Made by a program: the position numbers and the translations under genes | Notes under the pieces: generated by a model | The model's database searches: none | What the model was told of the DNA's origin: nothing | Seen by the model: only the letters and a program-made list of their open reading frames with translations | In this document: positions 36,928-62,345 of the stretch, piece by piece | Layout: the number at the start of each line of letters is the position of its first letter | How positions within the stretch are numbered: the first letter of the stretch is position 1 | Assembly: GCA_025454955.1 (NCBI GenBank) | Contig: JALONL010000006.1 | Coordinates: 284,198 to 348,197, forward strand | DNA from: Bacteroidia bacterium | GTDB taxonomy: Bacteria; Bacteroidota; Bacteroidia; Palsa-965 | Direction: 5' to 3' | DNA: 64,000 nt

Positions 36928-36939
36928 ATTCAGAGGCGA

Positions 36940-38652
36940 TTAATAGTGCAGTGATTCGATAAATCTTTCTTTCCACAATCCCGATAAAATTCCGGGAACA
37001 TTTAGCACAAGGCATACATCGCCCGTACCCAATATGGTGGCTCCGCTGAAAAGCGGATGATGGTTCAGCGGTTCGCTTAGCGTTTTCTCCACAATTTCTT
37101 TTTGCTGAAGCAAACGATCCACCACAAAACCCACGGTGCTGGTTGAGGAGGATACAATGATTACATCGAACTCAGTTTCTGACGAGGTTTCGAATGTATC
37201 GGCTCCCGAAGCAATTTGCCCGTTTTGTTTGCCGTAAAAAATATCCGACAAAAAGAAAAGGGCAATGGTTTTTCCGAGATAATCGGCAATGAGTCCGCTG
37301 GTAGTGCGGTGAATTTGCTGTCGGTTATATGAAATAACGGCTTCGGTATTGCTTAGTGCAATGGCAAAGGGCTGGTTGCGCACTTCAAAAATCATGGCAC
37401 CTTTTACGGCCATTGTCGAAGGCAGGATGAGTTCGAAAGTGGTGCCGCTGCCGGGCAGTGTGCGCAGGTTTATTTTTCCGCCAACCGACTCGGCAGCACG
37501 TTTTACCACGTCCATTCCCACACCGCGTCCGGCAATGGAGTTAATGGAATCGGCACTCGAAAAGCCCGGTTCGAAGATGAGGTAAATTATATCCTCGTCG
37601 CTGAGCAGTGCGGCACGTTCGGCGGTGAGCAGTCCTTTTTCAATGGCTTTGCTTCTTATTACGGGTGCGTGAATTCCTTTGCCGTCGTCGGTAACTTCAA
37701 TAATTACATTTTCTTTTTCCGAACGTGCCGCAAGTTTTACGGTTCCGGTTTCGGGTTTCAGGGCGGCCAGTCTTTCGGCGGGTGTTTCTATGCCGTGTGC
37801 GGCGGCGTTGCGGATAAGATGCACAAGCGAATCGCTGAGTATGCGCAAAATGCTGCGGTCTATTTCTATTTCGGTGCCTTCGGTAATGAGTTCGGCTTTT
37901 TTCTGTTCCACACTGGCCGCATCGCGCAGCACGCGGTGAAACTTGCTGAACAAAAATCCGATCTGCACCAGGCGCACATCCATAACTGCATACTGAAGAT
38001 CGGAAGTGATGCGCTGCAACCGTACCATTTCGCTTTGCGCATTGCCTTTGGCGGTGTTGCGGGCAATGAGCGTATCGCGCTCAATAATGAGTTCGCCGAT
38101 GATGTTGAGCAGATTATCCAGTTTGCGCACCGGCACCTGCACCATGTCTGATACCGACAACTCGTGGTTCAGCTCTTCCTCTTCACCGGCATCGGTTTGC
38201 AGCAATTCATCGGCGGTGTGTTCAGTAGCCACAGCGTTATCGTTGCCGGCTGTTTCGTTTTCGCTTTGCTGCAAGGCATTGCGCAGGGCCACTTCTAGTT
38301 TTGTTTTGATGCCTTTGTAGCGCACGGTTTCGCCTGTTCGCAGCGAAGCGATAAGCTGGCACAGTGTATCGTTGGCCCGGTACAGTGCATCAAAGAAGGC
38401 GGTATCAATGGAAATGCGTTTTTGCTTGAGCGCATTAAACACATCTTCCATTACATGGCTCAGTGCCGCAATATCGTCGAAGCCCAGCCCCATTGCATTG
38501 CCTTTGAGCGTATGCGTGATGCGGAAAATGGCATCAATGGACTGTGCATTGTTCACGTCTTTTTCGAGAAGGGTAAACAGGCGGTTCAGTTCACTGCACT
38601 GCTCTTCAGCTTCGGCCAGAAAAAGTTCGCGGTATTCGTCGTTGCGGCTCAT
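36940..38652 (-). CDS. cheA: Chemotaxis histidine kinase CheA
   Basis: A 570-aa ORF with an Hpt domain (ITHTLKGNAMGLGF), an HATPase_c domain (…HLIRNAAAHGIE…, …DDGKGI…, …GRGVGMDVV…) and a C-terminal CheW-like domain. Confidence 0.9.
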   Translation of the reverse strand: MSRNDEYRELFLAEAEEQCSELNRLFTLLEKDVNNAQSIDAIFRITHTLKGNAMGLGFDDIAALSHVMEDVFNALKQKRISIDTAFFDALYRANDTLCQLIASLRTGETVRYKGIKTKLEVALRNALQQSENETAGNDNAVATEHTADELLQTDAGEEEELNHELSVSDMVQVPVRKLDNLLNIIGELIIERDTLIARNTAKGNAQSEMVRLQRITSDLQYAVMDVRLVQIGFLFSKFHRVLRDAASVEQKKAELITEGTEIEIDRSILRILSDSLVHLIRNAAAHGIETPAERLAALKPETGTVKLAARSEKENVIIEVTDDGKGIHAPVIRSKAIEKGLLTAERAALLSDEDIIYLIFEPGFSSADSINSIAGRGVGMDVVKRAAESVGGKINLRTLPGSGTTFELILPSTMAVKGAMIFEVRNQPFAIALSNTEAVISYNRQQIHRTTSGLIADYLGKTIALFFLSDIFYGKQNGQIASGADTFETSSETEFDVIIVSSSTSTVGFVVDRLLQQKEIVEKTLSEPLNHHPLFSGATILGTGDVCLVLNVPGILSGLWKERFIESLHY

Positions 38653-38669
38653 GAAAATTTATTGACCTG

Positions 38670-39047
38670 TTAAGCCGGCAAGGCATTCATTACTTTGTTT
38701 ACGGCAGCAGTGAGGCTTTCGGAAGTAAACGGCTTCACAATGTAATCGGCCGCACCCAGCGTCATTCCTTCGCTGATTACCGACTCCTGCCCTACTGCAC
38801 TGATCATAATTATCTGCGCCCTGATATTTTCTTCCTGCTTGAGTACTTTCAGAATATCAGTACCAATCATATCGGGCAGAATATTATCGAGCGTAATCAG
38901 ATCGGGATCAAGTTCAATGGCCAGATCAATAGCCGATTCGCCATTGGCCGCCTGCCCGGTTACTGTATATCCGGCAGCGATAAGTGCTTCGCTTATCATG
39001 GTTCGCATGTACAGCGAATCGTCAACAATAAGAACAGATTTCGACAT
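38670..39047 (-). CDS. cheY: Chemotaxis response regulator CheY
   Basis: A 125-aa ORF with VLIVDDS...DLITLD...DYIVKPF receiver-domain motifs. Confidence 0.9.
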   Translation of the reverse strand: MSKSVLIVDDSLYMRTMISEALIAAGYTVTGQAANGESAIDLAIELDPDLITLDNILPDMIGTDILKVLKQEENIRAQIIMISAVGQESVISEGMTLGAADYIVKPFTSESLTAAVNKVMNALPA

Positions 39048-39058
39048 CGTGTATGGGT

Positions 39059-39619
39059 TTAATCGTTTTGCATATTGAGTTTGTCCTGTATATCGGCTTC
39101 GGTGCGTACGAGGTGATTGAGGTGAAGCAACATAATTAACCGCGTACCGTCTTTCACCACGCCCGAAATAGCAGCCATGTCGAGCGACGAGTATTGCACA
39201 AAACCTGCCGCATCTTCAATCTGTTCTTCGTACACGTTAATGGTATCGGGCACTTCGTTTACAATTATGCCGGCTTTCACCGTTTCGTGTTCGAGCACCA
39301 GGGCATAGCGTTCCTGCAATTGCGTAGTTTTTTCGATTCCGAATTTTATTTCCGGATCGATTATGGCCAATATGTTGCCGCGAATATTTACCACGCCCAG
39401 AAAATAATCGGGCATTTGCGGTACGTGTGCAATTTTGGGGGCAGGCACAATTTCTTTGATCTTGTCGATAGACAGTGCGTACTCTTCGCGGCCAATTTTA
39501 AACACTACCAGCTGAATGCGGCGGCCGTTGGTTTCTTTTTCCTGAACTTCGGCGGCGGCTTCGCGCTTCACATCGTCGAGCGTGTAATGGCCGGGAGTAA
39601 TGGAGTTCGATGTATCCAT
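39059..39619 (-). CDS. cheW: Chemotaxis coupling protein CheW
   Basis: A 186-aa ORF with CheW-like domain features (…LVVFKIGREEYALSIDKIKEIV…, …GVVNIRGNILAIID…). Confidence 0.8.
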   Translation of the reverse strand: MDTSNSITPGHYTLDDVKREAAAEVQEKETNGRRIQLVVFKIGREEYALSIDKIKEIVPAPKIAHVPQMPDYFLGVVNIRGNILAIIDPEIKFGIEKTTQLQERYALVLEHETVKAGIIVNEVPDTINVYEEQIEDAAGFVQYSSLDMAAISGVVKDGTRLIMLLHLNHLVRTEADIQDKLNMQND

Positions 39620-39626
39620 GTCCGGC

Positions 39627-41582
39627 TCAGAGTTTAAATTTGCTTACACCGTCGAGCAGTTGCGTGGCTACATCGGCCAGGTCGCGGCTTGTGGCGGTCA
39701 CTTCGTTCATGCCAAGACTGAGTTCTTTCGACGAGGAGGCAATTTGTTCGGTGCCCGAAGCGGTTTCTTCGGCCACCACCACAATTTTCTCGATGTTTTT
39801 TACGGTCGATTGTATGGCCTGTTTCTGCGAGTTGGTGGCATCCACAATGCTGCGCGAGAGTGCGAGGGTTTCGCTGCTCATTTTCTCGATTTGCTGAAAC
39901 ACGGTTTCGGCATCTTTAGAAGCAGAGTTGCCGTTTATTACCGAACGTTCCATGGCATCAATGGCTTTGGAGGCCGAAATAATGTCTTTCTGCACTTCAC
40001 GGATTACCTTTTCAATTTCCACCGCCGAGCGGCGCGAGTCTTCGGCCAGTTTGCGTATTTCGTCGGCCACCACCGAAAAGCCGCGTCCTGCCTCGCCTGC
40101 GCGGGCAGCTTCAATGGCGGCGTTGAGGGCAAGCAGGTTGGTTTGCGAAGCAATGCCGGTAATAACGGTAAGTGCGCGTGTAATTTCTTCCGAGCGTTCG
40201 GTGAGCACGTTAATGGAAGCCGAAGACGAATGGGCCGAGCTTTGAATCTGCTGCATACTTTCCACCACCTTGCGCACAGTGCCTAAGCCTTCAGACGCAT
40301 TGGTCTTGCCCGTTTCGGCGGCCGACTGAATCAGTTCGGCCTTGGTGTTTACCTCATTCGATTCGCCGAGCACGGCATCAATAAGGCGGCTCGACTCGTC
40401 GGTTTGCTGAGCCTGTTGCTGTGTGCCTTCGGCCATTTGCTGTGTGGCTGAGGCCACTTCGCGGGTGGTGTTGCGCATTTGTTCGCCCTTGGTGAGCATT
40501 TCTTCGGCCGAAGAGGCTACCAGATTGGCCATTTTGGAAATGCGGTTGAGCAGTTGTCCCACATTATCGAGCGCATTATTGAGACCATCGCCCATGCGCT
40601 GCAATTCTTCATTATCGGTAATGCGCAGCGAAAAACGTTCGCGCAAATCGCCTTCGGCCATTTTATTTATCACGCGGCGTACTTCGTCGTTGGCTTTGTT
40701 GCGTTTTTCCACTTCCTCGTCTTTGGCCTTCAAACTCTTGCGCATCAGCCCCAGCGAGTTGTTGAGTTCAAGCATTTCGCCCGAAGTTTTGATCTTTACT
40801 TCTTCATCGAGATTGCCGCGGGCCACTTCATTTACCACCCGGTTTACTTCATGAATGGGTCTGATAATGGAACGCATAAGAATAAGTCCGAACACCACCG
40901 AAATGCCGAGCACCAAAAAAATGGCAATGGCCGTAAACGTGATGGTTTGTGCAAATGCTTCGGAAGATTCATCGCGAAGTATTTCCGATTTTTTCATAAT
41001 GGTTTCGCTCAGTGCTTCCATTTCCACGGCCAGCTTGTCGTAGGTAATTTCATATTCAGGCAAACGTGCTTTTACCATAAACTCCGCCATCGAATCGCCC
41101 GAAAAGGCAATTTTTACCAGTTCGTTGCTTACATCGGTATAAGATTGAAGCGCGGGCCTTACCGTGGCTAACTTGTCTTTTATTTCGGGCCCCAGGTCAA
41201 AAGCCGAAAGCCTGTCAATGGCCGACATGAAAGAACCCGTATGCAGGTTGAGACTTTCCCTGGTGTCTTTTACCTCATCGGCATTGGTTTCATCGGCCAC
41301 CACGGCACTAAGCACATCGGCCTTAATGGCATCGTGCGCCATGTCGGCTGTCATTTGCTGATAAATGGCACCGGATACATCCACGATACCATTTTTTGTT
41401 TTTTCTATCCGGCTCAAAGAGAAATAGGCATACACGCCCAGCGCAATAAAGAACAAGGCGTTTATTGCAATGATGAGTCCGACTTTTGTAATGATTTTCA
41501 TGGGGGGGAGTCTGTTGTTATTGGTGTGAAGTGTAGCGTGTAGTGTGTATATGCTTTTATTTTCTAGAAAGAAACTATACAT
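39627..41582 (-). CDS. Methyl-accepting chemotaxis protein (N-terminal TM sensor, HAMP, MCP signalling domain)
   Basis: A 651-aa ORF with two TM helices, a HAMP domain (…[21 protein letters not shown]…) and the highly conserved MCP tip (…[40 protein letters not shown]…). Confidence 0.9.
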
Positions 41583-46006: not shown

Positions 46007-46045
46007 CTCAAAACGCCGCTCTTTTCAGGGCGGCGTTTTTATTAT
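46007..46045 (+). terminator. Rho-independent terminator after the TonB-dependent transporter
   Basis: AAAACGCCGC-TCTTTTCAGG-GCGGCGTTTT followed by TATTAT. Confidence 0.65.
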
Positions 46046-46423: not shown

Positions 46424-47860
46424 ATGTACATCCACAATCATCCTTCAAACAGTCCGTTTCTGTATGAATCGGAAGGAAAATTTACCGCCGGTGCACTTGA
46501 GGCGTACAATGAATTGCTGCGAAACGAAACAGACTGGCTCGTGCGTGTAATGCTGTTGCGTTTCCCGAAATCGTCCAACGGCGGTTACGAATTTGCTTCG
46601 GAAGCAAACTGGGAACAACTGCCTCCGCCCGATTTGCGCGATGGCAAAGGTCCGTATGCCGCGCTGGTAAATGCGCTCGAACTTGGTGCCGAAGAACGTT
46701 TGCTGCTCATCCTCACGCTGGCGCGGCAAATGAGCAAGCACTCGCTCAAGGTGCTTACGGATATTCTGATGACTCAGGCAGAGTATCACGACGAAATTGG
46801 CTGTTACTTCGTTACACCCAACCGTTCGCTGGTGTTTACGCTCAATACGGTGCTTACGCTCATTGCGGGCAATCATGCAGGACGGCGCGGTATGGCGTTT
46901 ACCAAACTGGTGCAGGAAAGTAAATTGGTGCGTGAGCAGATTCTTGAATTTGAAACACCTACCAATTTCAGCATTCAGTTTGGCGAGGGCGAAAAAGCAC
47001 CGGTGCTGGCCAAAGAGTATGTCACATTTCTGCTCAGCGGAAAACCGCCACGTCCTGATTTTGGCGAGAATTTCCCGGCCAAATTGGTAAGCACCAATCT
47101 CGACTGGCATCACCTCGTGGTACAGAAAGCCACGCGCGACGAAATAAACTGGGTGGTGCAATGGATCAGCCACGGCAGGCCGTTTACCGAACGTGTGGGC
47201 AGCAGGGCAATAAGCAGTTTTCCGGTGTTGTTTTTCGGCCCTCCCGGCACGGGCAAAACACTGGCGGCAAAACTCATCGGCAAGCAGTTTGGCAAAATGG
47301 TATTTCGTATCGACCTCTCGATGATGGTGAGCAAATACATCGGCGAAACCGAAAAAAACCTCGCCCGCCTGTTTGACCGCGCACAGGGCAAAGACTGGAT
47401 TCTGTTCTTCGACGAGGCCGATTCGCTCTTCAGCAAACGCACACAGGTAAACGACTCGCACGATAAATGGGCCAACCTCGAAACCAGCTACCTCCTGCAG
47501 CGCATCGAAGAATACGACGGTCTCTGCATCCTCGCCACCAACCTGCGCGACAATATTGATGCCGCCATGCTGCGTCGTTTTCAATACACCATCCATTTCC
47601 CGCGTCCCACAGAGGAACTCCGCGAACAACTCTGGAAAAGCCTGCTGCCAAACGGCTATGAGTTCGACCAGCTCGACTTCCGCAAACTCTGCGTGCAGGA
47701 TTTAACCGGTGCCAACATATCCAACGTACTCAACCACGCCTGCCTCGCCGCCGAAGCCGAGGGGCGAACGGTGTTGAAGAACTCAGAAATTGTACAGTTC
47801 ATGGCACTGGAGCTGATGAAGGAAAGTCGTACACTGAAATCGACCGATCATATTAAGTAA
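46424..47860 (+). CDS. AAA+ ATPase of the eCIS-associated (Afp15/Pvc15-like, CDC48-type) family
   Basis: A 478-aa ORF. The C-terminal AAA domain has Walker A FFGPPGTGKTLAAKLIG, Walker B ILFFDEAD, sensor-1 ILATN and an arginine finger region. …MMVSKYIGETEKNLARLFDRA… is the hallmark stretch of this ATPase family. The N-terminal ~270 aa are of unknown function. Confidence 0.75.
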   Translation: MYIHNHPSNSPFLYESEGKFTAGALEAYNELLRNETDWLVRVMLLRFPKSSNGGYEFASEANWEQLPPPDLRDGKGPYAALVNALELGAEERLLLILTLARQMSKHSLKVLTDILMTQAEYHDEIGCYFVTPNRSLVFTLNTVLTLIAGNHAGRRGMAFTKLVQESKLVREQILEFETPTNFSIQFGEGEKAPVLAKEYVTFLLSGKPPRPDFGENFPAKLVSTNLDWHHLVVQKATRDEINWVVQWISHGRPFTERVGSRAISSFPVLFFGPPGTGKTLAAKLIGKQFGKMVFRIDLSMMVSKYIGETEKNLARLFDRAQGKDWILFFDEADSLFSKRTQVNDSHDKWANLETSYLLQRIEEYDGLCILATNLRDNIDAAMLRRFQYTIHFPRPTEELREQLWKSLLPNGYEFDQLDFRKLCVQDLTGANISNVLNHACLAAEAEGRTVLKNSEIVQFMALELMKESRTLKSTDHIK

Positions 47861-47892: not shown

Positions 47893-50800
47893 ATGTCGCA
47901 TCGCCGCAATTTATATTCCTATCACGACGACGATTATTTCAAAACCCCGCAGCAACGCGCCTCCGAAGCCGCCAACAAAGCACAGGCCGATGCCGAGATG
48001 GATTTTGAGTATAACACCTGGCCGCGTTTGCAGCAAAAAATGGACGCGGGTCTTACACTCACGAAATATGAGTTGTATGATACGCGCATGTTTGGCGGGC
48101 CGCTGCACCGGACAAAGACTTTTGCCTACGTGCGTGCGCAGCAGAATGCGGAGAAGCTGAGTGTGGCTGCGGCCGATTCGGCTGAGGAGAAACAGGCGGA
48201 TGCGGTGGCCAACGCCGTGGCCACTGGCGGCGAGGTGCAAACCACCTCTACTGCCTCAGGGAAAACCGAAAGTTCGTCGCTTACTGTTTCGCCGGAGTTT
48301 GAGGAAAAACTGCTGGCAGGTAAAGGCCAGGGCGAACCACTCAACAGTGCATTGCGTGGGGAGATGGAAAGCAAAATGAATGGCGATTTCGGTGATGTGC
48401 GTGTGCATACCGGTGCTGATGCAGCGGAGATGAGCGCGGAGATAAATGCGCGGGCGTTTACGCATGGGAAAGATGTGTACCTGGGCAGCGGGGAGAGTGT
48501 GGAGGATAAGGAGTTGATGGCGCATGAGTTGGTGCATACGATCACTCCGGGAAATATCATTAAGCGCAAAGGAATAAACGATCCGTTGAATTACGGACTG
48601 CACCCCGAAGTAAAACCTAATTTCTTAAAAGGCAAAACCCTGTTAATGGATGCCGACGGCGATGGTTATCAGGAATTAGAACTTGTATTATATCTCGATA
48701 AAGACAAGGTTTTACAATTACAGGTGCATCATCTCGATAGCGACGTGTGGACCAACCGGCAGCACTTCCAGTCAGATAAAGAAGCATTGGTGGTATTAAA
48801 CTTTCAGACTCTGGGTGCAGCACATAAAACCTCAAAATTTACGCCCAACGATACCGAACTGAATACAAATTATATCAATCAGTTCAAACTCTATGATGAA
48901 GTCGATCCGGATAAAAAATCATATCAGCTAAATTTTGGTGCCGATGTGAATTTCAGACAGAATGGACAATACCATGCTGCTTTGGGCCCACACAAAATTA
49001 CATTCACTGTTAACCCATCAAAAATAAAGAAGCGCAGTGAAGATATTTCGTTTACCGAAACACGAAAGGCCGAAGCATTATCAGGCCCAATATATACGTT
49101 TCAGGCAGGGCAGCAGGGCGATGAAATAGAACTGCAAATTCAACAGGATTTCGAAGCTGCCATTCCTCAGGAAATGATAGCACAGAACCGAACCTCGGCA
49201 TATTCCATTTATGGATATATGAAAAGGCTAAATGGAAAAATTGTCCGATGGACAGAGCCGGTAATGGTTTATGCCGTAAACAATCAAATGCCGGCTTCAT
49301 TAAATCCGGTATATCAGGATGAAAAACTCATAGAACTGGGCATATCCGGATCATTCCTGCCTGATATAACCATTCATTATTATACGCTCTCCGAAAAAAA
49401 CAAATTCTATCATAATCGAAAAATACAACTTCATTTTTCAGGCCCTGCATTGTTCGGCGGTAAAGACTTCAGATCATTTATCCTCGTTAATAATTTCCCC
49501 GTAGCCAATTCAAACTTCCGTGGGGAAGATGATTACCATTCACTTTTAGATTATGAAGCACCAGCCATGCTGAATAATCAGGGTAAACCGTTGTCGGTGG
49601 AAGAAGATATTGCAAAAACAGAGGCCATACTTCTGCAACTGATGCAGCGACTTGTTCTCGACGGGAGTATGAATGAAATGGTTTTTCTTTCCTGGAAAGA
49701 ATACCTCCTGTCAAGAACTGTTCTTGAGGTAGTAAAGAATGCTAAAGTAAATAGTGAAGAAGAAAAAGCGCAAAGAAATTCCATTATTTTCAACGCAGCC
49801 ATGAAAGCCGACGCGTTTGCGTACCAGCTCATGAGGGAAACGAAAGCTTATGGCTATGTGCTTTCAAACAGTTATCCATCAAAAACAATTATCGTCGGGA
49901 ACTGGTCTAAAGAAGAGAAAGAATTTGAAGAGTTACATGCTTTATTAGATAATTATGTATTGAATATTGCTTCACGGAATACCGGCAATACTCCACCCGA
50001 TTATATTCACGACATTACATCATCGCCATCTGCTCAGCCCTACAGTGTTCAATACCGCTTACCTACCGAAGAAGAATTTACAGCCTACGAAAAGAGCAAA
50101 AAACAAGAAACAGACAGTATAAGAACCAACCTGAGAAACGAAGCAAAGGCCGAAGGATTAAATGAAGCGCAACAGCATGATAAACTTGTGGGGTCATACT
50201 CACATTTTGCCACTTACCGCAACCAGTTAAAAGAAATTGAGAAAAAGCAGTACCTGCAAAAAATAAATGCCGTTTTCTATGGCACTACTCCCGAACATAT
50301 TAACCAGTTTAATACGTCGTCAAGTACAAATGCGGTGGCGGTGCCGCTGCCGATTTGGGTGTATGTGGAAAACAACGAATGGCATATTGTGGATTTAATT
50401 AATCCTCAACAGCCATTCAAAGCTGCAGTACCGTATTATTCAGAAAACGGGAGCAATCCGCCCGAAGCACTTTTCGAGCAGCTAAACCACGAAAAGCATT
50501 TGCCCAAAGGTTATATATACTATCAGATCGGCGACCAAAAGAAAGTGGTAATTACCCAGGGCGAACAAACACAGTGGTATGATATTTTGGGTTATATCGC
50601 ACTGGGATTGGGGTTTGTAGGATTAAGCATAGCTACTTTTGGAGCAGCACTGCCTGCCAAAATTGCCGTACTGGGCACCGTAGTAAGCTACGCCAGCATA
50701 ATTACCGGCGCACTGAGCACCGCCGGCGACATGTGGGACAGTTACAAACACGGGCAGCTTACCGATCAGACACTCATGCTCAATATGCTCGATCTGGCCG

Positions 50801-52770
50801 GAGCATTGCTGCAATTAAAAACATTGTCGATAAGCCTTCTGCTTCGTTCAGAAACTATGGCCGCAAAACTGCCCAAAGCATTGCAGGCAGCCAAATTGGT
50901 TTACATGCCGCTGAAAATTGGCGAATACGCCACCGAAGGCACAAGACTATTTATCATTACTGCCGATGCTGCCGAACAAATTACTCAGATCATAAATGCT
51001 CCGGGCGACGATGAAGCCAAAAAGCGGGCATTGGTTACACTACTCTCGCAAATGGCACTTTCGTTGAGCATGTACGTGCTCGACGTGAAAGACTATGGCG
51101 ATGAAGTAAACTTAGTGCGTAATGCCGGAAAAAAATCAGGAGCAACCACACATTCACCACATACCGAACCTGATATAAATATTAAGATAAATGAACTATC
51201 CGGCAATGAAAATGTGGGCAAATCGGTAGTGGAGGCGGCTGGCGAAACTCAGGAAGAAATTCTCGGCGGTGACTCCGAAACACCAGTCACTACGGCACAA
51301 CAACGTGTGACGTATGGAAAGGACGAAAAGGGTTTTTACCGTACCAATCTCGACCAGCCTCACATACAACAACGTATAACCGAAGCCGAGTTCTACAACG
51401 CACGGGTAAGCATTGCCAATGCGCAGGTCAAAAAAACAGGCAAAATCGAAAACCCCGCCAAGGTTTCGGTCGATGCGTTGTTGCTGCTTGTGGCCTTTGC
51501 CGATCTGCAAATACAAGCCGTGAATTATCCGGCAGGCATTCTCGCCGGTGTGTCCACCGCCACGCTGTTGCTCCGCAAAGGTATGCGGGGCATGATTGGC
51601 AAACTCAAAGCAAAGAACCCCGGCATCAGCGACAAAGAATTATTGGATGAACTTAAAAAGACGATTCACAGCGATGGGGAACTAAACCGTTCGTTGAAGG
51701 AAAAGAATTTTAACTCTATTGATGAGGTGGATTTTGAAATGCCCGATGGCTCGAAGAAAAAGTTTGACGAGATAGCGCAGGAAGAAATTGACCATTCAAA
51801 ATTGCCCGACGAGGAGCGTAAGAAGATTGAGGCCGAACAGGAGGCAGAGCTAAAACCTGAGCAAAAGGAAAAGATCACCACGGAGGACGAAACGGTAAAG
51901 CCGAAAGAGGAAACACCTGAGATAAAACCGGAAATTACGTCTAAGAAAAAGATTGAGTACTGGGCAGAGGATCAGCTAACGCATGTACCCGGCAACCCGG
52001 AGTACCTGAAAATTATGCTTAATGGCGATCCGAAGCAGATTATTACGCTCAAGCGGGAGAAGGATAAGGATTGGATTGTACAGAGAGGAACGAAAGAAGC
52101 GAACGATAATAATAAGTTGACGAATGAAGAGATTTTGGAGAGAGTGCCGGAGAAGTATCGTAAAAAAAGTGAGACAATAAATCCGAATGAGGATGTAACA
52201 CAGAATACCTCCAATGAGGTTGAGAATAAAAAATCTGAAATACAAAAAGACAATTCAGAAAAATTAACATCTAAAAAGGCTGAGACCGGTGAACCTCCTT
52301 TTGCAAAGAGGAAAACAATATTGAAAGTTGGAGAGCCAATACTTAATGGTAAAATAAACCGGGTGCGTGCTGGCGATGAGAAGAAAATTGTTATTATCGG
52401 ATTAGATATGAACGGGCATGTAATTCCAATTGCCAAAGAATTACAAAGTCAGGGATTTGACGTGGAAATTTTAGAGGATAATTTTCTAAATGGTCGTACA
52501 TTTGAAATTGATGGTAAACAATGGACAGTTACCGAGGCTTTTAATGATATGGTTGAAAATGATAAATACGATGGCATGAGAGGGTTAGATAATAAAATTT
52601 TGCCAGAGTTTTTAGATCAAATACCAATGTATAAGCTAAACGAACAATGGATAACAGAACATAAAACGTCTGGAAAAACGATTCTTGATGTTGGAGGGCC
52701 TGCTAACTCAAATAAAACAAGCACCTTCTATAATATGGAAATTAACTCAATAAATTGGAACACGCAATGA
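47893..52770 (+). CDS. Giant polymorphic-toxin-like protein (1625 aa): N-terminal DUF4157 zincin-like domain, long central region with TM helices, K/E-rich disordered linker, variable C-terminal (toxin) domain
   Basis: Residues ~150-215 (coordinates ~48340-48540) read RGEMESKMNGDFGDVRVHTGADAAEMSAEINARAFTHGKDVYLGSGESVEDKELMAHELVHTI. This matches the DUF4157 consensus (fG.DFs.VRvH.d..A...a..l.ArAfT.G.diyf........LlAHEL.Hv). Hydrophobic helices lie at ~50580-50740 (ILGYIALGLGFVGLSIATFGAALPAKIAVLGTVVSYASIITGAL). A ~147-aa charged linker, repeated twice more downstream, precedes a unique C-terminal ~190 aa. Confidence 0.8.
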   Translation: MSHRRNLYSYHDDDYFKTPQQRASEAANKAQADAEMDFEYNTWPRLQQKMDAGLTLTKYELYDTRMFGGPLHRTKTFAYVRAQQNAEKLSVAAADSAEEKQADAVANAVATGGEVQTTSTASGKTESSSLTVSPEFEEKLLAGKGQGEPLNSALRGEMESKMNGDFGDVRVHTGADAAEMSAEINARAFTHGKDVYLGSGESVEDKELMAHELVHTITPGNIIKRKGINDPLNYGLHPEVKPNFLKGKTLLMDADGDGYQELELVLYLDKDKVLQLQVHHLDSDVWTNRQHFQSDKEALVVLNFQTLGAAHKTSKFTPNDTELNTNYINQFKLYDEVDPDKKSYQLNFGADVNFRQNGQYHAALGPHKITFTVNPSKIKKRSEDISFTETRKAEALSGPIYTFQAGQQGDEIELQIQQDFEAAIPQEMIAQNRTSAYSIYGYMKRLNGKIVRWTEPVMVYAVNNQMPASLNPVYQDEKLIELGISGSFLPDITIHYYTLSEKNKFYHNRKIQLHFSGPALFGGKDFRSFILVNNFPVANSNFRGEDDYHSLLDYEAPAMLNNQGKPLSVEEDIAKTEAILLQLMQRLVLDGSMNEMVFLSWKEYLLSRTVLEVVKNAKVNSEEEKAQRNSIIFNAAMKADAFAYQLMRETKAYGYVLSNSYPSKTIIVGNWSKEEKEFEELHALLDNYVLNIASRNTGNTPPDYIHDITSSPSAQPYSVQYRLPTEEEFTAYEKSKKQETDSIRTNLRNEAKAEGLNEAQQHDKLVGSYSHFATYRNQLKEIEKKQYLQKINAVFYGTTPEHINQFNTSSSTNAVAVPLPIWVYVENNEWHIVDLINPQQPFKAAVPYYSENGSNPPEALFEQLNHEKHLPKGYIYYQIGDQKKVVITQGEQTQWYDILGYIALGLGFVGLSIATFGAALPAKIAVLGTVVSYASIITGALSTAGDMWDSYKHGQLTDQTLMLNMLDLAGALLQLKTLSISLLLRSETMAAKLPKALQAAKLVYMPLKIGEYATEGTRLFIITADAAEQITQIINAPGDDEAKKRALVTLLSQMALSLSMYVLDVKDYGDEVNLVRNAGKKSGATTHSPHTEPDINIKINELSGNENVGKSVVEAAGETQEEILGGDSETPVTTAQQRVTYGKDEKGFYRTNLDQPHIQQRITEAEFYNARVSIANAQVKKTGKIENPAKVSVDALLLLVAFADLQIQAVNYPAGILAGVSTATLLLRKGMRGMIGKLKAKNPGISDKELLDELKKTIHSDGELNRSLKEKNFNSIDEVDFEMPDGSKKKFDEIAQEEIDHSKLPDEERKKIEAEQEAELKPEQKEKITTEDETVKPKEETPEIKPEITSKKKIEYWAEDQLTHVPGNPEYLKIMLNGDPKQIITLKREKDKDWIVQRGTKEANDNNKLTNEEILERVPEKYRKKSETINPNEDVTQNTSNEVENKKSEIQKDNSEKLTSKKAETGEPPFAKRKTILKVGEPILNGKINRVRAGDEKKIVIIGLDMNGHVIPIAKELQSQGFDVEILEDNFLNGRTFEIDGKQWTVTEAFNDMVENDKYDGMRGLDNKILPEFLDQIPMYKLNEQWITEHKTSGKTILDVGGPANSNKTSTFYNMEINSINWNTQ
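51717..52157 (+). repeat. Copy 1 of a ~440-bp direct repeat (encodes the K/E-rich pre-toxin linker) inside the giant gene
   Basis: TCTATTGATGAGGTGGATTTTGAAATGCCCGATGGCTCGAAGAAAAAGTTTGACGAGATAGCGCAGGAAGAAATTGACC... is near-identical to 53377-53820 and 54648-55095. Confidence 0.85.
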
Positions 52771-53270
52771 ATTCAGAAATCGTAAATTTAGCAAATAGAA
52801 TACAGATAAAAGTATTAAATCATTTCTCGTCAGTAATTGCAAATTTTGCTATAGAGATTGATGTTAAATACAGTGAGGAAAAAAACCTTCACATAATTAA
52901 CGATTCATTTAGACAAAGTAACTTTAGAATGGATATCTTCTTTCGAAGACCAAGTGCCAATAAAGTACTTCTCTTTACTTTTTATGATGGATATAATGGG
53001 AATAAGGAATTATCATATAAAATTGATTTTAAAATCTCGTCGCCGGGCAATAAACGTAACATCTATTCAGCAAAAGTACTATTTAAGCATTTGAATATTC
53101 CATACAGTTTCAATAATTTTTTTCTCCAACAAGGGGTAGATAATTTGTTTCTTCAAACTGATATTTTCTTAAAAAATATTGACGAATTGCTTGCTCTGCC
53201 AGAAATACAAACAATACTTTACACTGATGCTTGGATAGATATTCCGATAGATATGAGTGAGTACAAATAA
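52755..53270 (+). CDS. Putative cognate immunity protein of the resident C-terminal toxin domain (171 aa)
   Basis: Its start ATG overlaps the stop of the giant gene (CGCAATGAATTC, ATGA overlap). It is AT-rich, has no signal peptide and sits in the typical position of an immunity gene. Confidence 0.5.
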   Translation: MEHAMNSEIVNLANRIQIKVLNHFSSVIANFAIEIDVKYSEEKNLHIINDSFRQSNFRMDIFFRRPSANKVLLFTFYDGYNGNKELSYKIDFKISSPGNKRNIYSAKVLFKHLNIPYSFNNFFLQQGVDNLFLQTDIFLKNIDELLALPEIQTILYTDAWIDIPIDMSEYK

Positions 53271-53337
53271 TGGATAGGAATTTACATGTGAAGTCTCCCC
53301 GGAAACAGATAAATCTGAAAAATCAATTCACGATGAT

Positions 53338-54342
53338 GTGGAGTTAACCAAATCACTGCAAGAAAAAGGATTGACTTCTATTGACGATGTAGAGTTTGAA
53401 ATGCCCGATGGCTCGAAGAAAAAGTTTGACGAGATAGCGCAGGAAGAAATTGACCATTCAAAATTGCCCGACGAGGAGCGCAGGAAGATTGAAGCAGAAC
53501 AGGAGGAAGAGCTAAAACCAGAGCAAAACGAAAAGGCCACCACGGAGGACGAAACGGTAAAGCCGAAAGAGGAAACACCTGAGATAAAACCGGAAATTAC
53601 GTCTGAGAAAAGGATTGAGTACTGGGCAGAGGATCAGCTAACGCATGAACCCGGTAACCCGGAGTACCTGAAAATTATGCTTAATGGTGATCCGAAACAG
53701 ATTATTACGCTCAAGCGGGAGAAGGATAAGGATTGGATTGTACAGAGAGGAACGAAAGAAGCGAACGATAATAATAAGTTGACGAATGAGGAGATTTTGG
53801 AAAGGGTGCCGGAGAGGTATAGGAATAAATATCAGCCTAATGAAGTTAAATATAAAGATGGATGGACAAAGGAAAGAGTTCTTTCAAAGCCCAAAGGAGA
53901 GAGAGAGGTCCCTGAAATTTATTTATCAAATGATTACATTGAGAACCACTTGAGTATTTTTGAAAAAGAAGGCATTGTTTCTAGGATTGTTCTAAAGACA
54001 GCATATGATAAATATGGAATTGGTAAGCCGGATAAAGGGAAAACAGAGTTTGTCAGCTTGAAATCAGATATAGATAAACTCATTTCGGATTCAAATGGTG
54101 ACATCGAAATCTTATCAAGTGTACTTGGTGTCAGTAAAGAACAATTATCGGGTGGATTAGTACGTGTAGATTTTTATTTAAATTCACAGAATAAAGTTCA
54201 CATGCCATCAGGCAACGAGTTTGGTACAAATAGCCAATGGATTCCCGGTGGGAAATTGCCAACTGGGCAGCTTGAAGCAATCATTAAAACTGAAGGACTG
54301 ATTGTGAACGTAGATTACATTGTAAAAGACATAACATGGTAA
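53338..54342 (+). CDS. Orphan toxin cassette 2: linker repeat copy 2 fused to a different C-terminal domain (~175 aa); lacks the DUF4157/TM N-terminal part
   Basis: Residues ~14-160 are about 95% identical to the linker of the giant protein (SIDDVEFEMPDGSKKKFDEIAQEEIDHSKLPDEER...ILERVPERYR). The sequence then diverges completely (NKYQPNEVKYKDGW...IVNVDYIVKDITW). Confidence 0.6.
   Translation: MELTKSLQEKGLTSIDDVEFEMPDGSKKKFDEIAQEEIDHSKLPDEERRKIEAEQEEELKPEQNEKATTEDETVKPKEETPEIKPEITSEKRIEYWAEDQLTHEPGNPEYLKIMLNGDPKQIITLKREKDKDWIVQRGTKEANDNNKLTNEEILERVPERYRNKYQPNEVKYKDGWTKERVLSKPKGEREVPEIYLSNDYIENHLSIFEKEGIVSRIVLKTAYDKYGIGKPDKGKTEFVSLKSDIDKLISDSNGDIEILSSVLGVSKEQLSGGLVRVDFYLNSQNKVHMPSGNEFGTNSQWIPGGKLPTGQLEAIIKTEGLIVNVDYIVKDITW
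53377..53820 (+). repeat. Copy 2 of the ~440-bp direct repeat
   Basis: Near-identical nucleotide sequence to 51717-52157. Confidence 0.85.
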
Positions 54343-54569
54343 CAGAAATTTATTGTAAACCCTGGGATTTTACCTTATACCAAGTAAATAATGACTTGGT
54401 AATTAGTGTGGTTTTTTTTGGCTTAGTGGACTATCATAGAAGTTTTAGGATTGAAACTGGTACAGTTGATACCAGTAACTATGAATCCTTAGGAATTCTA
54501 TCTGAAAAAATTCGAAGAGCACCTGATGAGTACTCTGAGTCAGAAGTTAAACCAGCTATATTTTTTTAA
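54336..54569 (+). CDS. Small putative immunity protein for cassette 2 (77 aa)
   Basis: Its start overlaps the cassette-2 stop (CATGGTAA). It has a hydrophobic segment (LVISVVFFGLV). Confidence 0.35.
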   Translation: MVTEIYCKPWDFTLYQVNNDLVISVVFFGLVDYHRSFRIETGTVDTSNYESLGILSEKIRRAPDEYSESEVKPAIFF

Positions 54570-54639
54570 TGATTTTCGATTAATTGAAAAGAAATTTGAT
54601 TAATCGGATTTTTGATTCTATTTTCCTTTAATGAAAGGG

Positions 54640-55531
54640 CTCCACTTCTATTGACGATGTAGAGTTTGAAATGCCCGATGGTTCAAAGAAAAAGTTTGAC
54701 GAGATAGCGCAGGAAGAAATTGACCATTCAAAATTGCCCGACGAGGAACGTAAGAAGATTGAGGCTGAACAGGAAGCAGCGCTAAAACCTGAGCAAAAGT
54801 AAAAGACCACCACGGAGGACGAAACGGTAAAGCCGAAAGAGGAAACACCTGAGATAAAACCGGAAATTACGTCTGAGAAAAAGATTGAGTACTGGGCAGA
54901 GGATCAGCTTACGTATGAACCCGGCAACCCGGAGTACTTGAAAATTATGCTCAATGGTGATCCGAAACAGATTATTACGCTCAAGCGGGAAAAGGATAAG
55001 GATTGGATTGTAGAGTCAGGAACGAAAGAAGCGAACGATAATAATAAGTTGAAGGATGATGAGATTTTGGAGAAGGTGCCGGAGAAGTATAAAAGTAAAA
55101 AAAATGGGAATGAGTGGAAAAGCGTCCAGAAAATCAAGAATAAATACCCAGATGAAAAAATGCCTTCTGATGGTGTACTATATGGAATAGCTGAAATTAA
55201 AGACGGGCTAATCCAGTCTATTGGAAATAAGGGTAATAATTTTAATGAAATTGATTTTGTCGTAACAACAAAAGGCGAACTCATAATTGGGAAAAAACAT
55301 CATTTCCTAGGGAATGCCTTGGAAGTAGAAGCCGCTGGAACACTAAAAATTGTAAATGGGAAAGTCAAAAAAATAACAAACGCTTCAGGACATTATTTAC
55401 CATCTGTTGAAGAAACTCTTAACTTTGAAGCTGTATTCAAAAACTTAGGAATCAATACCACTAATACAGCATTAGAGATATATTATATCGACGGAAACAA
55501 ATTAAAATCAACTACAAAATTTTTGAAGTAA
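54640..55531 (+). pseudogene. Orphan toxin cassette 3: linker repeat copy 3 with an in-frame nonsense codon (TAA at 54799-54801, GAA in copies 1/2) fused to a third distinct C-terminal domain
   Basis: In GAGCAAAAG TAA AAGACCACCACGGAGGAC the third codon is GAA in the other copies (EQKEKITTED becomes EQK*KTTTED). The distal ORF 54938..55531 encodes the remainder plus a unique C-terminal domain (…GKKHHFLGNALEVEAAGTLKIVNGKVKKITNASGHYLP…). Confidence 0.6.
54648..55095 (+). repeat. Copy 3 of the ~440-bp direct repeat (slightly more diverged)
   Basis: It shares the TCTATTGACGATGTAGAGTTTGAAATGCCCGATGG... start and aligns to copies 1 and 2 throughout. Confidence 0.8.
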
Positions 55532-56046
55532 TGGAATACACAGAGTTAATTAATACTATTCATAAAGCAGATTTCAATATCAACAAGCATAATCTTTCAG
55601 CAATTGATATTGATAAAATTTGTGCTGTGCCTGATAAATTTGACTTTATGAAATCTCTTTTTGAAAATTTCGACTCCCGATTTTGCGAAGGATTACTGTT
55701 AACCTGTCCTTGTTTATGGACAAATTTCACTCTTAAAGATTGGGAAAAAATTATAGTTTCTATATCTCCAAGGGTTAAATTAAATGACAACATTACTTTT
55801 CATATAAATAATAATTCAGGATACGCAGATGTGATATTCATAAGACGATACTTCAATATAGACATCGAAAATTTAATTGAGAAATTACCTCAAATGCTTA
55901 GCGATGATAAGAAAAAAATAAGAGACTTTATTTCATTTTATGATGAAAAAATTTGCAAAAATAAAAATGAGATTACCGAAGACCTCAATGACTTCTACAA
56001 TATTTCGTTTGAGGAGTTAAGTGACTATGTAGCTCACATGAAATAA
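55531..56046 (+). CDS. Putative immunity protein for cassette 3 (171 aa)
   Basis: Its start overlaps the cassette-3 stop (GAAGTAATGG, TAATG overlap). It is cysteine-containing and AT-rich, with no signal peptide. Confidence 0.45.
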   Translation: MEYTELINTIHKADFNINKHNLSAIDIDKICAVPDKFDFMKSLFENFDSRFCEGLLLTCPCLWTNFTLKDWEKIIVSISPRVKLNDNITFHINNNSGYADVIFIRRYFNIDIENLIEKLPQMLSDDKKKIRDFISFYDEKICKNKNEITEDLNDFYNISFEELSDYVAHMK

Positions 56047-56070: not shown

Positions 56071-56307
56071 ATGAATATTTCATTTGAAATAATATCGAAA
56101 GGCAGTTTGTTAGTTCATTACCATAACAAAACTGCTCTTATCAGCGGAGAACTTGTTTTTTCCCCGCCAGTATTTTATGCCGATCTATCTTCTTTAATTT
56201 ATTGGCAGCCTCCATATGAAATGGATGCAATATCTCAAAGCGAAAAAAGCGATATAATTTCGTTTTTAATAAGTCAAAATACAGGAACAAAAATTGTGTT
56301 TGATTAA
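56071..56307 (+). CDS. Small hypothetical protein (78 aa), candidate orphan immunity gene
   Basis: ORF in the AT-rich immunity island; no recognisable domain. Confidence 0.3.
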   Translation: MNISFEIISKGSLLVHYHNKTALISGELVFSPPVFYADLSSLIYWQPPYEMDAISQSEKSDIISFLISQNTGTKIVFD

Positions 56308-56401
56308 TAGTAATTGAGAAATTTTGATCGGAAAGTCTGGGGGTGAGTTGTAAATTTTCCTATAGTATCAGTTCGGTGAAAGTTAGTAGTTTTGAGCGTA
56401 G

Positions 56402-56935
56402 TTGTTTTTTGAAAGATTTCAATCTGATGCTCAAACAAAGATAAATATGCAAAACATAGACATAAAAGTAAATGAATGTCAATCAACACTAACCTCAGTT
56501 TTTACTAAAAACGAGGATAATTTTTCACATCATTGGAACATAAAAATTGAGGCTGGTCCCCATTCATTTTACTTAGAATTTTTGCAATTAGAAAACTCGC
56601 AGTCTATTTTTGATCTTTCGAATAAGTCATTTAGAATTAGCGATACAGATTTATTACAGTTGCAGTCCTGTTTCATCAATGATTCGGGGATTAAGATTGC
56701 GAATCAAATTCAAATTTCATTTGATGAATTTGATAGTGAAATAAGAAAAATCCATTCAAAAGTAAAGCTGAATTTTAATTCATATATCGTGAGTGTAGAA
56801 ACAGATATGTTATTTGCTGGATATAATTTTTATGAGGTTCCCGAAATCAATATAGAAAGGATTATTATCGAAAAAAAATTAGGTGAAATTAGAGTTCAAG
56901 ATATTGGCATTAATAATAGGCTATATAATTACTAA
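56402..56935 (+). CDS. Hypothetical protein (about 165 aa; likely start MQNIDIK at 56447), candidate orphan immunity gene
   Basis: ORF in the AT-rich island; no recognisable domain. Confidence 0.35.
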   Translation: MFFERFQSDAQTKINMQNIDIKVNECQSTLTSVFTKNEDNFSHHWNIKIEAGPHSFYLEFLQLENSQSIFDLSNKSFRISDTDLLQLQSCFINDSGIKIANQIQISFDEFDSEIRKIHSKVKLNFNSYIVSVETDMLFAGYNFYEVPEINIERIIIEKKLGEIRVQDIGINNRLYNY

Positions 56936-57042
56936 AATCCCCAACATTTCCTCAATGCTTTTCCTCACTTAAAATATTTATAATTCGACAACTATTGAAT
57001 AGATGAAGCCCAAAACAATCATTACATTTTATACTCAATAAT

Positions 57043-57489
57043 ATGAAATGTTTAACAATACTAAACAATCAAGAATCCAAGGTACAGCCAAGTGATATTG
57101 ACTACTTTGAAGAAAGGTATAAGATCAAAATTCCCGAAAAACTGAAAGACTTTTTTTTGTTATTTGGGGGCTCTAGAATCAAAGAGATGTATTATCATAG
57201 AGGTGAATCTTTGGATCAAGTTTGTGATATACTTTTAGTTAAGTCAATACAAGGAAAACCATCATGTGAGTCGATATATCAGGGACACCTATCTTATGGA
57301 GATATTGGCTTTATTCCATTTGCAATTGACTCCGGCGGCTGGGATTACAACGTATCTATAAACCCTGACACCTACGGCCAAGTTTGGGTTGATAAATTCG
57401 ACAGCGGCGAAGAAACCCCTTTTGAGTTTGTATGTAATTCCTTTGAAGAATTTATTGATGGGCTTACTGAGCAAGAAAAGGACTTTTAA
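57043..57489 (+). CDS. SMI1/KNR4 (SUKH-1 superfamily) immunity protein
   Basis: A 148-aa ORF. IDYFEERYKIKIPEKLKDFF...GG, IPFAIDSGGWDYNV and the C-terminal FVCNSFEEFIDGL fit the SUKH fold pattern. That pattern has an N-terminal ligand-binding helix, a central GG and [ILV]PFA.D..G..[FY] strands, and a C-terminal F..FL motif. Confidence 0.7.
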   Translation: MKCLTILNNQESKVQPSDIDYFEERYKIKIPEKLKDFFLLFGGSRIKEMYYHRGESLDQVCDILLVKSIQGKPSCESIYQGHLSYGDIGFIPFAIDSGGWDYNVSINPDTYGQVWVDKFDSGEETPFEFVCNSFEEFIDGLTEQEKDF

Positions 57490-61634: not shown

Positions 61635-62345
61635 AAAACACAAACCGCTCCCTCCTTCGACAGGCTCAGGGAGCGGTTTTTGTTTTGTGATAAGCATTGA
61701 AAGTAAATACAAACCGTTCCCTTCGACAAGCTCAGGGAGCGGTTTGCATTTTACCCGCGGAGCGGTTTGTTTTAGTGTGAAAGAAGTGTACGAATATATT
61801 TTTCCGGAAATTCCAAAACCACATTTCAAACAATAATGCCAAAACCCGTTCCCTGAGCTTGTCGAAGGGCGGGTTTTGTTTTTGATTGTGATAATACAAA
61901 CCGTTCCCTTCGACAAGCTCAGGGAGCGGTTTGCATTTTACCCGCGGAGCGGTTTGTATTCTGAACAGTTTGCATTTTACTCAGGGAACAGTTTGCTTTC
62001 GTATGAATACCGTGAGTAAAATTTTTATCCCAAAAATCACAACGAGGTTACAAAACCCGGCCCCTGAGCTTGTCGAAGGGCCGGGTTGCATTTTACACAG
62101 TGAACAGTTTGCATTTATGTGAAAACAGTGAGTAAAATTTTCATCCAAGAAAAACGAGATTACAAAACCCGGCCCCTGAGCTTGTCGAAGGGCCGGGATT
62201 TGTATTCGTATAAATACAGTAAGTAAAATTTAATCCAAGAAATCACAACAAGGTTATAAAACCCGCCCCCTAAGCCTGTCGAAGGGGCCAAATAATAACA
62301 ATAATCCTTCACGAAAAAATCCCCGTCCCCCTGAGCGGAGCCGAA
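61635..62345. repeat. Array of at least 9 short hairpin/palindromic repeats (REP/BIME-like) in both orientations, with a ~100-bp higher-order unit repeated 3 times
   Basis: The core CCGTTCCCTTCGACAAGCTCAGGGAGCGG (or its complement CCGGCCCCTGAGCTTGTCGAAGGGCCGG) recurs at about 61645, 61716, 61845, 61895, 62058, 62160 and 62262, plus degenerate copies at 61753, 61935 and 62312. The unit GTGAGTAAAATTTT.ATCC.AG.AA.ACA.GGTTACAAAACCCGGCCCCTGAGCTTGTCGAAGGGCCGG recurs at about 62012, 62128 and 62218. Confidence 0.8.
61638..61690 (+). terminator. Rho-independent terminator after atpC (first element of the hairpin-repeat array)
   Basis: AAACCGCTCCCT-CCTTCGACAGGCTC-AGGGAGCGGTTT followed by TTGTTTTG. 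Confidence 0.6.

Follow-up and report, generated by a model that had tools for sequence, protein, structure and literature searches.

Toxins that carry the DUF4157 domain form the largest predicted class of cargo of extracellular contractile injection systems (eCIS); little is understood of their biology, and immunity genes are often said to be missing from them. Typically, a long linker joins the N-terminal DUF4157 domain to a toxin at the C-terminus (Geller et al. 2021, PMC8213781), and the domain is used as a marker of PVC/eCIS cargo (PMC3482391, PMC8213781, PMC11297309). As PVC-metallopeptidase proteins they have been described as polymorphic toxins thought to have evolved through recombination, many of them without immunity genes, and a CDC48-related ATPase is characteristic of PVC-type systems (Zhang et al. 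2012, PMC3482391). Among known eCIS-associated toxins (EATs), 88% lie within ten genes of a contractile-injection structural operon (Danov et al. 2024, PMC11297309). Here we describe a locus on a 64,000-nucleotide stretch of a Bacteroidia bacterium (GTDB lineage Palsa-965; GCA_025454955.1, contig JALONL010000006.1, positions 284,198 to 348,197), hereafter the window, in which a gene for a 1,625-aa DUF4157 protein is followed by an array of alternative C-terminal (CT) cassettes. In our view it is likely a polymorphic toxin locus belonging to the DUF4157 (eCIS-core/PVC-metallopeptidase) class, in which a repeated module of ~445 bp acts as the homology handle for cassette exchange.

Polymorphic toxin genes followed by arrays of alternative C-terminal cassettes with immunity genes reportedly also occur in the Neisseria MafB loci and among the Bacteroidetes TANFOR toxins; both are said to have N-terminal trafficking domains and secretion routes unlike those of the present locus, with which TANFOR shares its Bacteroidetes origin. 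The orphan cdiA-CT/cdiI and rhs-CT/rhsI modules (Poole et al. 2011; Koskiniemi et al. [quoted passage not shown] Unlike cdiA and rhs, our locus has no Rhs/YD repeats, filamentous haemagglutinin repeats, VENN or PxxxxDPxGL motifs (Pfam), would use a different delivery route, is demarcated by an uncharacterised module ending in VPE[KR]Y[KR], and contains no integrase or transposase genes in the array. Since it lacks their repeats and the VENN and DPxGL motifs, the locus is not a member of the rhs or cdiA families, though it appears functionally alike; the analogy to rhs/cdiA orphans drawn in a first, sequence-only reading of this DNA thus carries over in mechanism but not in Rhs repeats, CdiA repeats or the VENN motif.

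The locus belongs to the DUF4157/PVC-metallopeptidase polymorphic toxins, where it extends a known principle and reveals no new one. As in EATs, the N-terminal zincin domain of the main protein, with an HExxH motif, is joined by a linker of over 1,000 aa to a C-terminal toxin that varies, and relatives bear WHH, HNH, AHH and deaminase tips, among others. An AAA ATPase of the CDC48 clade, which may correspond to the CDC48-related ATPase of such systems, lies next to the gene. Unlike EATs, the locus does not stand beside a contractile-injection operon, and a candidate immunity gene is plainly present, together with an array of orphan cassettes; we found no description in the literature of orphan cassette arrays, or of the present pre-toxin module, for the DUF4157 class. 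The main gene occupies 47893-52770 (features are on the plus strand unless stated otherwise) and its sole Pfam match is PF13699 (eCIS_core, formerly DUF4157; E 5e-21), a zincin domain at 48337-48543 (aa 149-217) with an intact HExxH, HELVH, at aa 211. By inspection, no Sec signal was seen in the protein. A Kyte-Doolittle scan marked a hydrophobic, transmembrane-like cluster at 50578-51087 (aa 896-942, 966-984 and 1047-1065) and a further hydrophobic segment at 51457-51567 (aa 1189-1225), just 5' of the first repeat copy. The 478-aa AAA+ ATPase of the CDC48 clade (46424-47860; PF00004 at aa 268-393, E 3e-27) lies directly 5' of the toxin gene, has a single AAA domain and finds CDC48, p97 and VAT as its top solved-structure matches; the pairing is kept in three of the related loci described below (L003, L004 and L005). 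A strong terminator-like hairpin (46010-46039) separates the ATPase from an upstream TonB-dependent receptor gene.

The architecture proposed in the sequence-only reading was supported: a full-length gene that ends in a repeat copy and a C-terminal domain, with a small open reading frame (ORF) behind it, is followed by two 5'-truncated repeat-CT units, each with a small ORF of its own. A repeat search of the window found three direct copies of one family (starts 51646, 53308 and 54578), and an alignment with MAFFT and a script delimited their high-identity core to 51721-52153, 53383-53815 and 54653-55085. In codon register the module measures 447 nt (~445 bp; ~149 aa). Copy 1 (51715-52161) encodes aa 1275-1423 of the main protein, copy 2 (53377-53823) opens orphan cassette 2, a 334-aa ORF called from a GTG at 53338, and copy 3 (54647-55093) opens orphan cassette 3. 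These coordinates lie within a few bases of those first proposed, and the encoded peptide, SIDEVDFEMPDGSKKKFDEIAQEEIDH...ILERVPEKYR, is as quoted there, with one correction: copy 3 contains an internal in-frame TAA at 54800-54802. In the encoded module a conserved start (SID[DE]V.FEMPDGSKKKFDE) leads, through a K/E/P-rich linker, into a small pre-toxin domain that is likewise conserved and has a VPE[KR]Y[KR] end. The claim of near-identity stands in so far as the copies are colinear and highly similar, but pairwise alignment puts "almost identical" at 93-95% rather than ~100%: nucleotide identity over 433 columns without indels is 94.9% between copies 1 and 2 and 93.3% between copy 3 and either of the others. 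Beyond either edge of the repeats, ~30 nt suffice for identity to sink to the background level of ~35-45%, except for ~54-70 nt of weak (57%) homology 5' of copy 2, where a diverged 54-nt remnant of the main gene (53323-53376) directly adjoins the module.

Repeats in a metagenome-assembled contig raise the concern, already voiced in the sequence-only reading, that the array was produced in assembly; strain variants might have been duplicated, or joined into a chimera, where they share sequence. The window is part of JGI (Joint Genome Institute) metagenome contig Ga0392395_0000017, and the contig of one related locus (L004) ends at the expected module start, which fits a break of that assembly at the repeat and shows that assemblies can break there. 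The copies nevertheless differ from one another at 22-29 positions, their longest identical run is 92 nt and the flanks are unique to each copy; the same arrangement recurs in three independently assembled relatives (L002, L003 and L006), and the orphan proteins P0003 and P0096, the latter the NCBI copy of orphan 2, are likewise recorded from an NCBI "Bacteroidia bacterium" metagenome-assembled genome. We therefore judge an artefact of this kind highly improbable, with a slight residual chance that the order of the cassettes is a chimera of co-existing strains.

As had been proposed, the copies lead into different C-terminal regions, and these (202, 172 and 145 aa) show no BLASTP similarity to one another. 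CT1, the resident toxin domain (202 aa; 52162-52770), comprises a 46-aa linker and a 156-aa flavodoxin-like alpha/beta fold; its 102 relatives always carry it at the extreme C-terminus, in proteins of 160-1694 aa, one of which is an RHS-repeat protein. CT2 (172 aa; 53824-54342) was modelled with AlphaFold2 (predicted local distance difference test score 88) and searched with Foldseek, where its top matches in the Protein Data Bank (PDB) were to the NAD+ glycohydrolase SPN of S. pyogenes (4kt6, 3pnt; probability 0.99, TM 0.5, E 8e-3), followed by ADP-ribosyltransferase toxins including pertussis toxin S1. Two of its residues, R54 and E151 in the numbering of alignment A2, are invariant. On the strength of this model CT2 is a probable NAD+ glycohydrolase or ADP-ribosyltransferase-fold toxin, and it forms the C-terminus of ~20 other proteins of Bacteroidota (Winogradskyella, Chryseobacterium, Aquimarina) at 48-59% identity. 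CT3 (145 aa; 55094-55531) has an invariant motif, SGHY.P, and was given no family or PDB/fold assignment by family and structure searches. It recurs as the C-terminus of P0104 and P0117 and in a module-headed orphan, P0002, and in diverged form it ends P0033, a DUF4157 protein of 1,482 aa. Since each domain recurs at the extreme C-terminus of unrelated proteins, the view that the CT domains behave as mobile toxin tips is supported. A protein body shared by P0004, P0005 and P0006, together with CT domains that recur on unrelated proteins, fits the polymorphic toxin systems of Zhang et al. 2012, large proteins whose C-terminal toxin differs between relatives.

A small ORF overlaps or abuts each CT domain, a genomic arrangement that points to cognate immunity genes. 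Candidate immunity gene 1 (167 aa; 52767-53270) overlaps the stop codon of the toxin gene and has no Pfam or NCBIfam match; a homologue of the same length (34% identity over 105 aa) follows CT1 in L002, L003 and L006. Candidate immunity gene 2 (77 aa; 54336-54569) follows CT2, and its homologues (46% and 33% identity) lie directly 3' of CT2-bearing genes in Winogradskyella and Chryseobacterium. Because it is co-inherited with CT2 in other genera, as expected of an immunity gene, we regard it as the candidate cognate of CT2. The start codon of candidate immunity gene 3 (171 aa; 55531-56046) overlaps the stop codon of CT3, and the CT3-like orphan P0002 is likewise followed by a gene, of 164 aa. 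The three CT domains and their small ORFs are accordingly named here as putative toxin-immunity pairs, roles that we infer from sequence. Three lone immunity-like genes form the tail of the array (56071-57489; Pfam): a 78-aa ORF with a weak, sub-threshold Imm74 match, a 177-aa ORF and a 148-aa SMI1/KNR4 (SUKH) protein (57043-57489), a member of a family of polymorphic-toxin immunity proteins. G+C content is 30-38% over 52-57 kb against ~50% in the flanks, a drop of 12-20 points across the cassettes.

Comparative evidence came from five loci, L002-L006, retrieved via a protein index, and from the protein P0002. No further relatives were found when the full-length protein and the module alignment were searched against genome contigs, and the module alignment and a degenerate DNA pattern against metagenome contigs; the contig collections scanned evidently leave out the JGI samples in which the family occurs. 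The main protein has few close homologues: P0005 (69% identity, 97% coverage), P0006 (71%, cut by a contig end) and P0007. In L003 the AAA gene and a main gene with module and CT1 are followed by a 167-aa ORF, a 403-aa ORF joining the module to a WHH nuclease, and a SUKH gene. The locus from a sister sample, L002, has the same order with the WHH orphan truncated and the SUKH gene missing. In L006, which derives from a third sister sample, the end of an unrelated small ORF stands before the module, CT1 and the immunity gene, and the module-WHH nuclease and SUKH genes again come after them; since no main-gene body lies 5' of the module there, CT1 of L006 is in an orphan-like position. A main gene syntenic with the others, P0007, comes from the same sample on L005, whose contig ends just past the stop codon, and L005 and L006 are plausibly contiguous. 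P0002, the module-headed CT3-like orphan, begins mid-module.

The same junction is occupied by different cassettes in two lineages, that of the window and that of L003. The SUKH protein of the window is 57% identical to that after the WHH-nuclease orphan of L003 and L006 (90.6% over 159 nt at the nucleotide level), a similarity that suggests that the lineage of the window lost the WHH toxin and kept its immunity gene. The L003 contig closes on a further fragment of main-gene sequence. Main-gene sequence from directly 5' of the module is seen copied, at 99% over 145-223 bp, after the SUKH gene of both loci (L003 8754-8898 and L006 3635-3857), the L006 copy being joined straight to the downstream flank; such a copy may be a remnant of a further orphan or the product of an unequal crossover.

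Several lines of evidence bear on recombination at the module, for which nine copies were aligned. First, the copies cluster by genome: those of the window are 93-95% identical to one another and those of the L003 lineage 90-93%, against 72-75% between the lineages, and the state of an 18-nt indel is common to all module copies of a lineage. Second, the pattern of identity is reversed across the 5' edge. Both lineages have in common the junction that leads from immunity gene 1 into the first orphan, and the 54 nt 5' of copy 2 are 94.4% identical to the L003 orphan against 57.4% to the main gene of the window; inside the module the relation is the opposite, copy 2 being 93-95.5% identical to the main gene of the window against 70-84% to L003. 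Third, at the 3' edge the identity between window and L003 rises from ~70% in the module to 87-98% over ~360 bp at the start of the CT1 cassette. Fourth, main-like, orphan-like and window-like tracts alternate along the L006 module, making it a mosaic. Given these flips and jumps at both edges, the grouping by genome and the mosaic, both module edges are recombination junctions, and the copies within one genome do not evolve independently. Further 3', the last third of CT1 is 57-70% identical between window and L003 and the immunity gene is at background level (34% for the protein, over 105 aa), before identity climbs back to 73-95% where the immunity gene ends and at the next junction; across the CT1 cassette (window 52155-53270) this pattern suggests sub-domain recombination and a diverged immunity specificity.

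Homogenisation of the copies within a genome could reflect intragenomic gene conversion or exchange among very close strains, which these data do not separate. The "recent or ongoing gene conversion" of the sequence-only reading is therefore supported as to homogenisation, by the indel state and the grouping, but is not the sole reading, since exchange between closely related strains could also explain a copy divergence of 5-7%. Its proposal that the repeats are the recombination substrate for swapping C-termini, on the other hand, is supported by the mobile CT domains and by the breakpoints at both edges of the module.

The mechanism we favour would work as follows. The 1,625-aa gene would supply the constant part, made up of the DUF4157 zincin, the long body with hydrophobic helices and the ~149-aa pre-toxin module, and the two promoter-less, 5'-truncated orphan cassettes would each supply the module with a toxin and an immunity gene of their own. 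The three module copies would mark the junction of constant and variable parts and give RecA-type recombination ~445 bp of homology to act on. If copy 1 recombined with copy 2 or 3, the main gene would be fused in frame to CT2 or CT3, any crossover between copy 1 and an orphan copy being in frame since the copies are colinear; an intact CT3 fusion would arise only from a crossover in the ~290 nt 3' of the TAA at 54800. Such a fusion could arise through deletion; alternatively, a transient duplication could come first, the route demonstrated in Salmonella rhs (Koskiniemi 2014, via PMC4927057). Simple deletion would cost the resident immunity gene, a loss that the route of duplication followed by recombination would avoid. 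Gene conversion would keep the copies similar within the genome, and incoming DNA of the form module-CT-immunity-module could add or replace cassettes by two crossovers. Insertion by double crossover would fit the different cassettes at the same junction, the low G+C content and the tail of lone immunity genes. The adjacent CDC48-type ATPase would act as the loader.

Two other kinds of element were considered and rejected. An inversion-type shufflon or a diversity-generating retroelement finds no counterpart in the region, as inverted repeats between 46 and 58 kb are at chance level and the array has no recombinase or reverse transcriptase gene. The sole mobile-element gene seen in the window, a DDE transposase (DDE_Tnp_1_6/DUF772; 27611-29167, minus strand), lies far from the array. 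No plus-strand terminator-like sites were found in the array, and a promoter and terminator scan was uninformative on orphan expression, its counts being at the level of shuffled sequence.

A number of observations weigh against the exchange mechanism set out above. First, every complete main gene of the subfamily ends in CT1, and among the recovered relatives none has CT2, CT3 or WHH fused to the main gene. The comparison with related genomes that the sequence-only reading had proposed thus turned up other orphan cassettes in the relatives but no different resident tip. Because no relative carries CT2 or CT3 on the main gene, actual switching of the resident tip in this strain is something we infer and have not observed. 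Second, copy 3 has its premature stop (TAA 54800-54802) and about half of the inter-copy differences are non-synonymous, two features that suggest that the orphans may be decaying. Third, no activity could be assigned to CT1 or CT3 from family and structure searches. Fourth, the sequence data all come from metagenome assemblies. Lastly, Pfam searches of the ORFs scanned in the 64-kb window found no sheath, tube, baseplate or spike genes, and the only gene related to contractile injection systems (CIS) there has neighbours that are not structural.

The second of these points fits a rival reading in which the orphans are fossils only. They would have been displaced downstream whenever a new module-CT-immunity segment integrated into the main gene, the repeats would be insertion scars and not a switching device, and the orphans would persist only because their immunity genes protect against neighbours. 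For cdi orphans, PMC4927057 gives two standard models, of which this is one, and besides the in-frame stop and the share of non-synonymous differences it accommodates the three tail immunity-like genes that have lost their toxins, the truncated WHH orphan of L002 and the low G+C content, which indicates that the cassettes came from outside. It does not, however, predict a module whose sequence and indel state are lineage-specific and whose signal flips exactly at its edge despite a shared upstream junction; the flip and the shared indel state require recombination among resident copies, or with very close strains, after the array had formed. The two accounts are also not exclusive, as scars of such length and identity are still recombination substrates. 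We regard the fossil model as partly true, holding for the stop in copy 3 and the lost toxins; alone it leaves the homogenised modules unexplained, and as the whole explanation it is possible but somewhat unlikely.

The intact 334-aa ORF of orphan 2 and the intact 403-aa ORF of the WHH orphan in L003 and L006, both predicted by gene callers, raise another alternative to cassette exchange, namely that the orphans are independent, separately translated small toxins whose ~149-aa module is a delivery or adaptor domain whose likeness is maintained by protein-level selection. Conservation between lineages is good over the final ~70 residues of the module, and by inspection a similar motif precedes the C-terminal region of P0007. 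The start codons available to the orphans are, however, only GTG or TTG where the homology begins to fade, copy 3 is interrupted by its stop, and the orphan P0002 sets in mid-module. Moreover, the identity within a genome reaches synonymous sites, the poorly conserved K/E-rich linker and the indel state, a pattern that protein selection cannot give. We hold this explanation to be improbable.

The DUF4157 marker suggests that the protein may be delivered by a contractile injection system, yet the window has no sheath, tube or baseplate genes, and within its sequence the toxin does not lie within ~ten genes of an eCIS operon. The one CIS-related gene encodes a contractile injection system tape measure protein (PF19268, CIS_TMP; 3852-5429, minus strand, E 2e-76), ~42 kb from the toxin. 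It is followed by a 486-aa TPR-like gene (2055-3515, minus strand) and a ~520-aa AAA-like gene (434-2017, minus strand), and the next gene beyond is PriA; the three genes form an isolated satellite. We considered whether the PF19268 gene might belong to a CIS operon at this left-hand end, and rejected the idea, as the 10 kb beyond it (L011) contain PriA and housekeeping genes.

Comparison of the main genes of sister samples revealed a further exchange, of the body itself. P0005 (L003 1682-6475) and P0007 (L005 10001-14356) share the upstream AAA context and the first ~215 aa, which include DUF4157 and are almost identical, and these are the only part of P0007 in common with P0005; the remaining bodies of ~1,200 aa are wholly different, amounting to a body swap after DUF4157. 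The hydrophobic helices of the window protein are glycine- and alanine-rich and lie within what is presumed to be an injected cargo protein; by inspection, a comparable glycine-rich hydrophobic region is present in the otherwise unrelated body of P0007. These helices may have a role in membrane insertion or translocation. Together with the putative cognate immunity genes, the orphan array and the body swap between co-occurring strains, the transmembrane-like helices lend some weight to a more speculative account, in which the ATPase-DUF4157 pair would be a self-contained weapon between close Bacteroidota relatives, remote from or independent of a classical eCIS operon, with two nested levels of swapping, body and tip. 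We consider this account unlikely. If true, it would mean that DUF4157 toxins are used in strain-level warfare with immunity, and not only against distant or eukaryotic targets.

The favoured reading, cassette exchange at the module, would make this a DUF4157 toxin that resembles a classical interbacterial polymorphic toxin, with candidate immunity genes, a silent reservoir of tips and recombination at a defined module. The bounded module with its VPE[KR]Y[KR] end can serve as a search handle for further cassettes, and the locus offers three candidate toxin-immunity pairs, one of them probably an NADase, as well as a natural design for swapping payloads on a scaffold.

Other features of the window touch none of these subjects. 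Between the ATP synthase genes and a gene for a Por_Secre_tail protein, the intergenic region 61706-62291 contains several families of 45-68-nt direct repeats with G+C-rich palindromes (e.g. AAAACCCGGCCCCTGAGCTTGTCGAAGGGCCGGG) that have the look of repetitive extragenic palindromic (REP) or miniature inverted-repeat transposable (MITE) elements. Two ORFs of ~1,360 aa (6755-10837 and 12290-16393, both on the minus strand) adjoin a TonB-dependent receptor gene and have essentially no Pfam match, apart from one weak FlgD_ig. Chemotaxis clusters are uncommon in Bacteroidia, and one is present at 35450-41582 (minus strand), with genes for CheR, CheA, a CheY-like receiver, CheW and a methyl-accepting protein.

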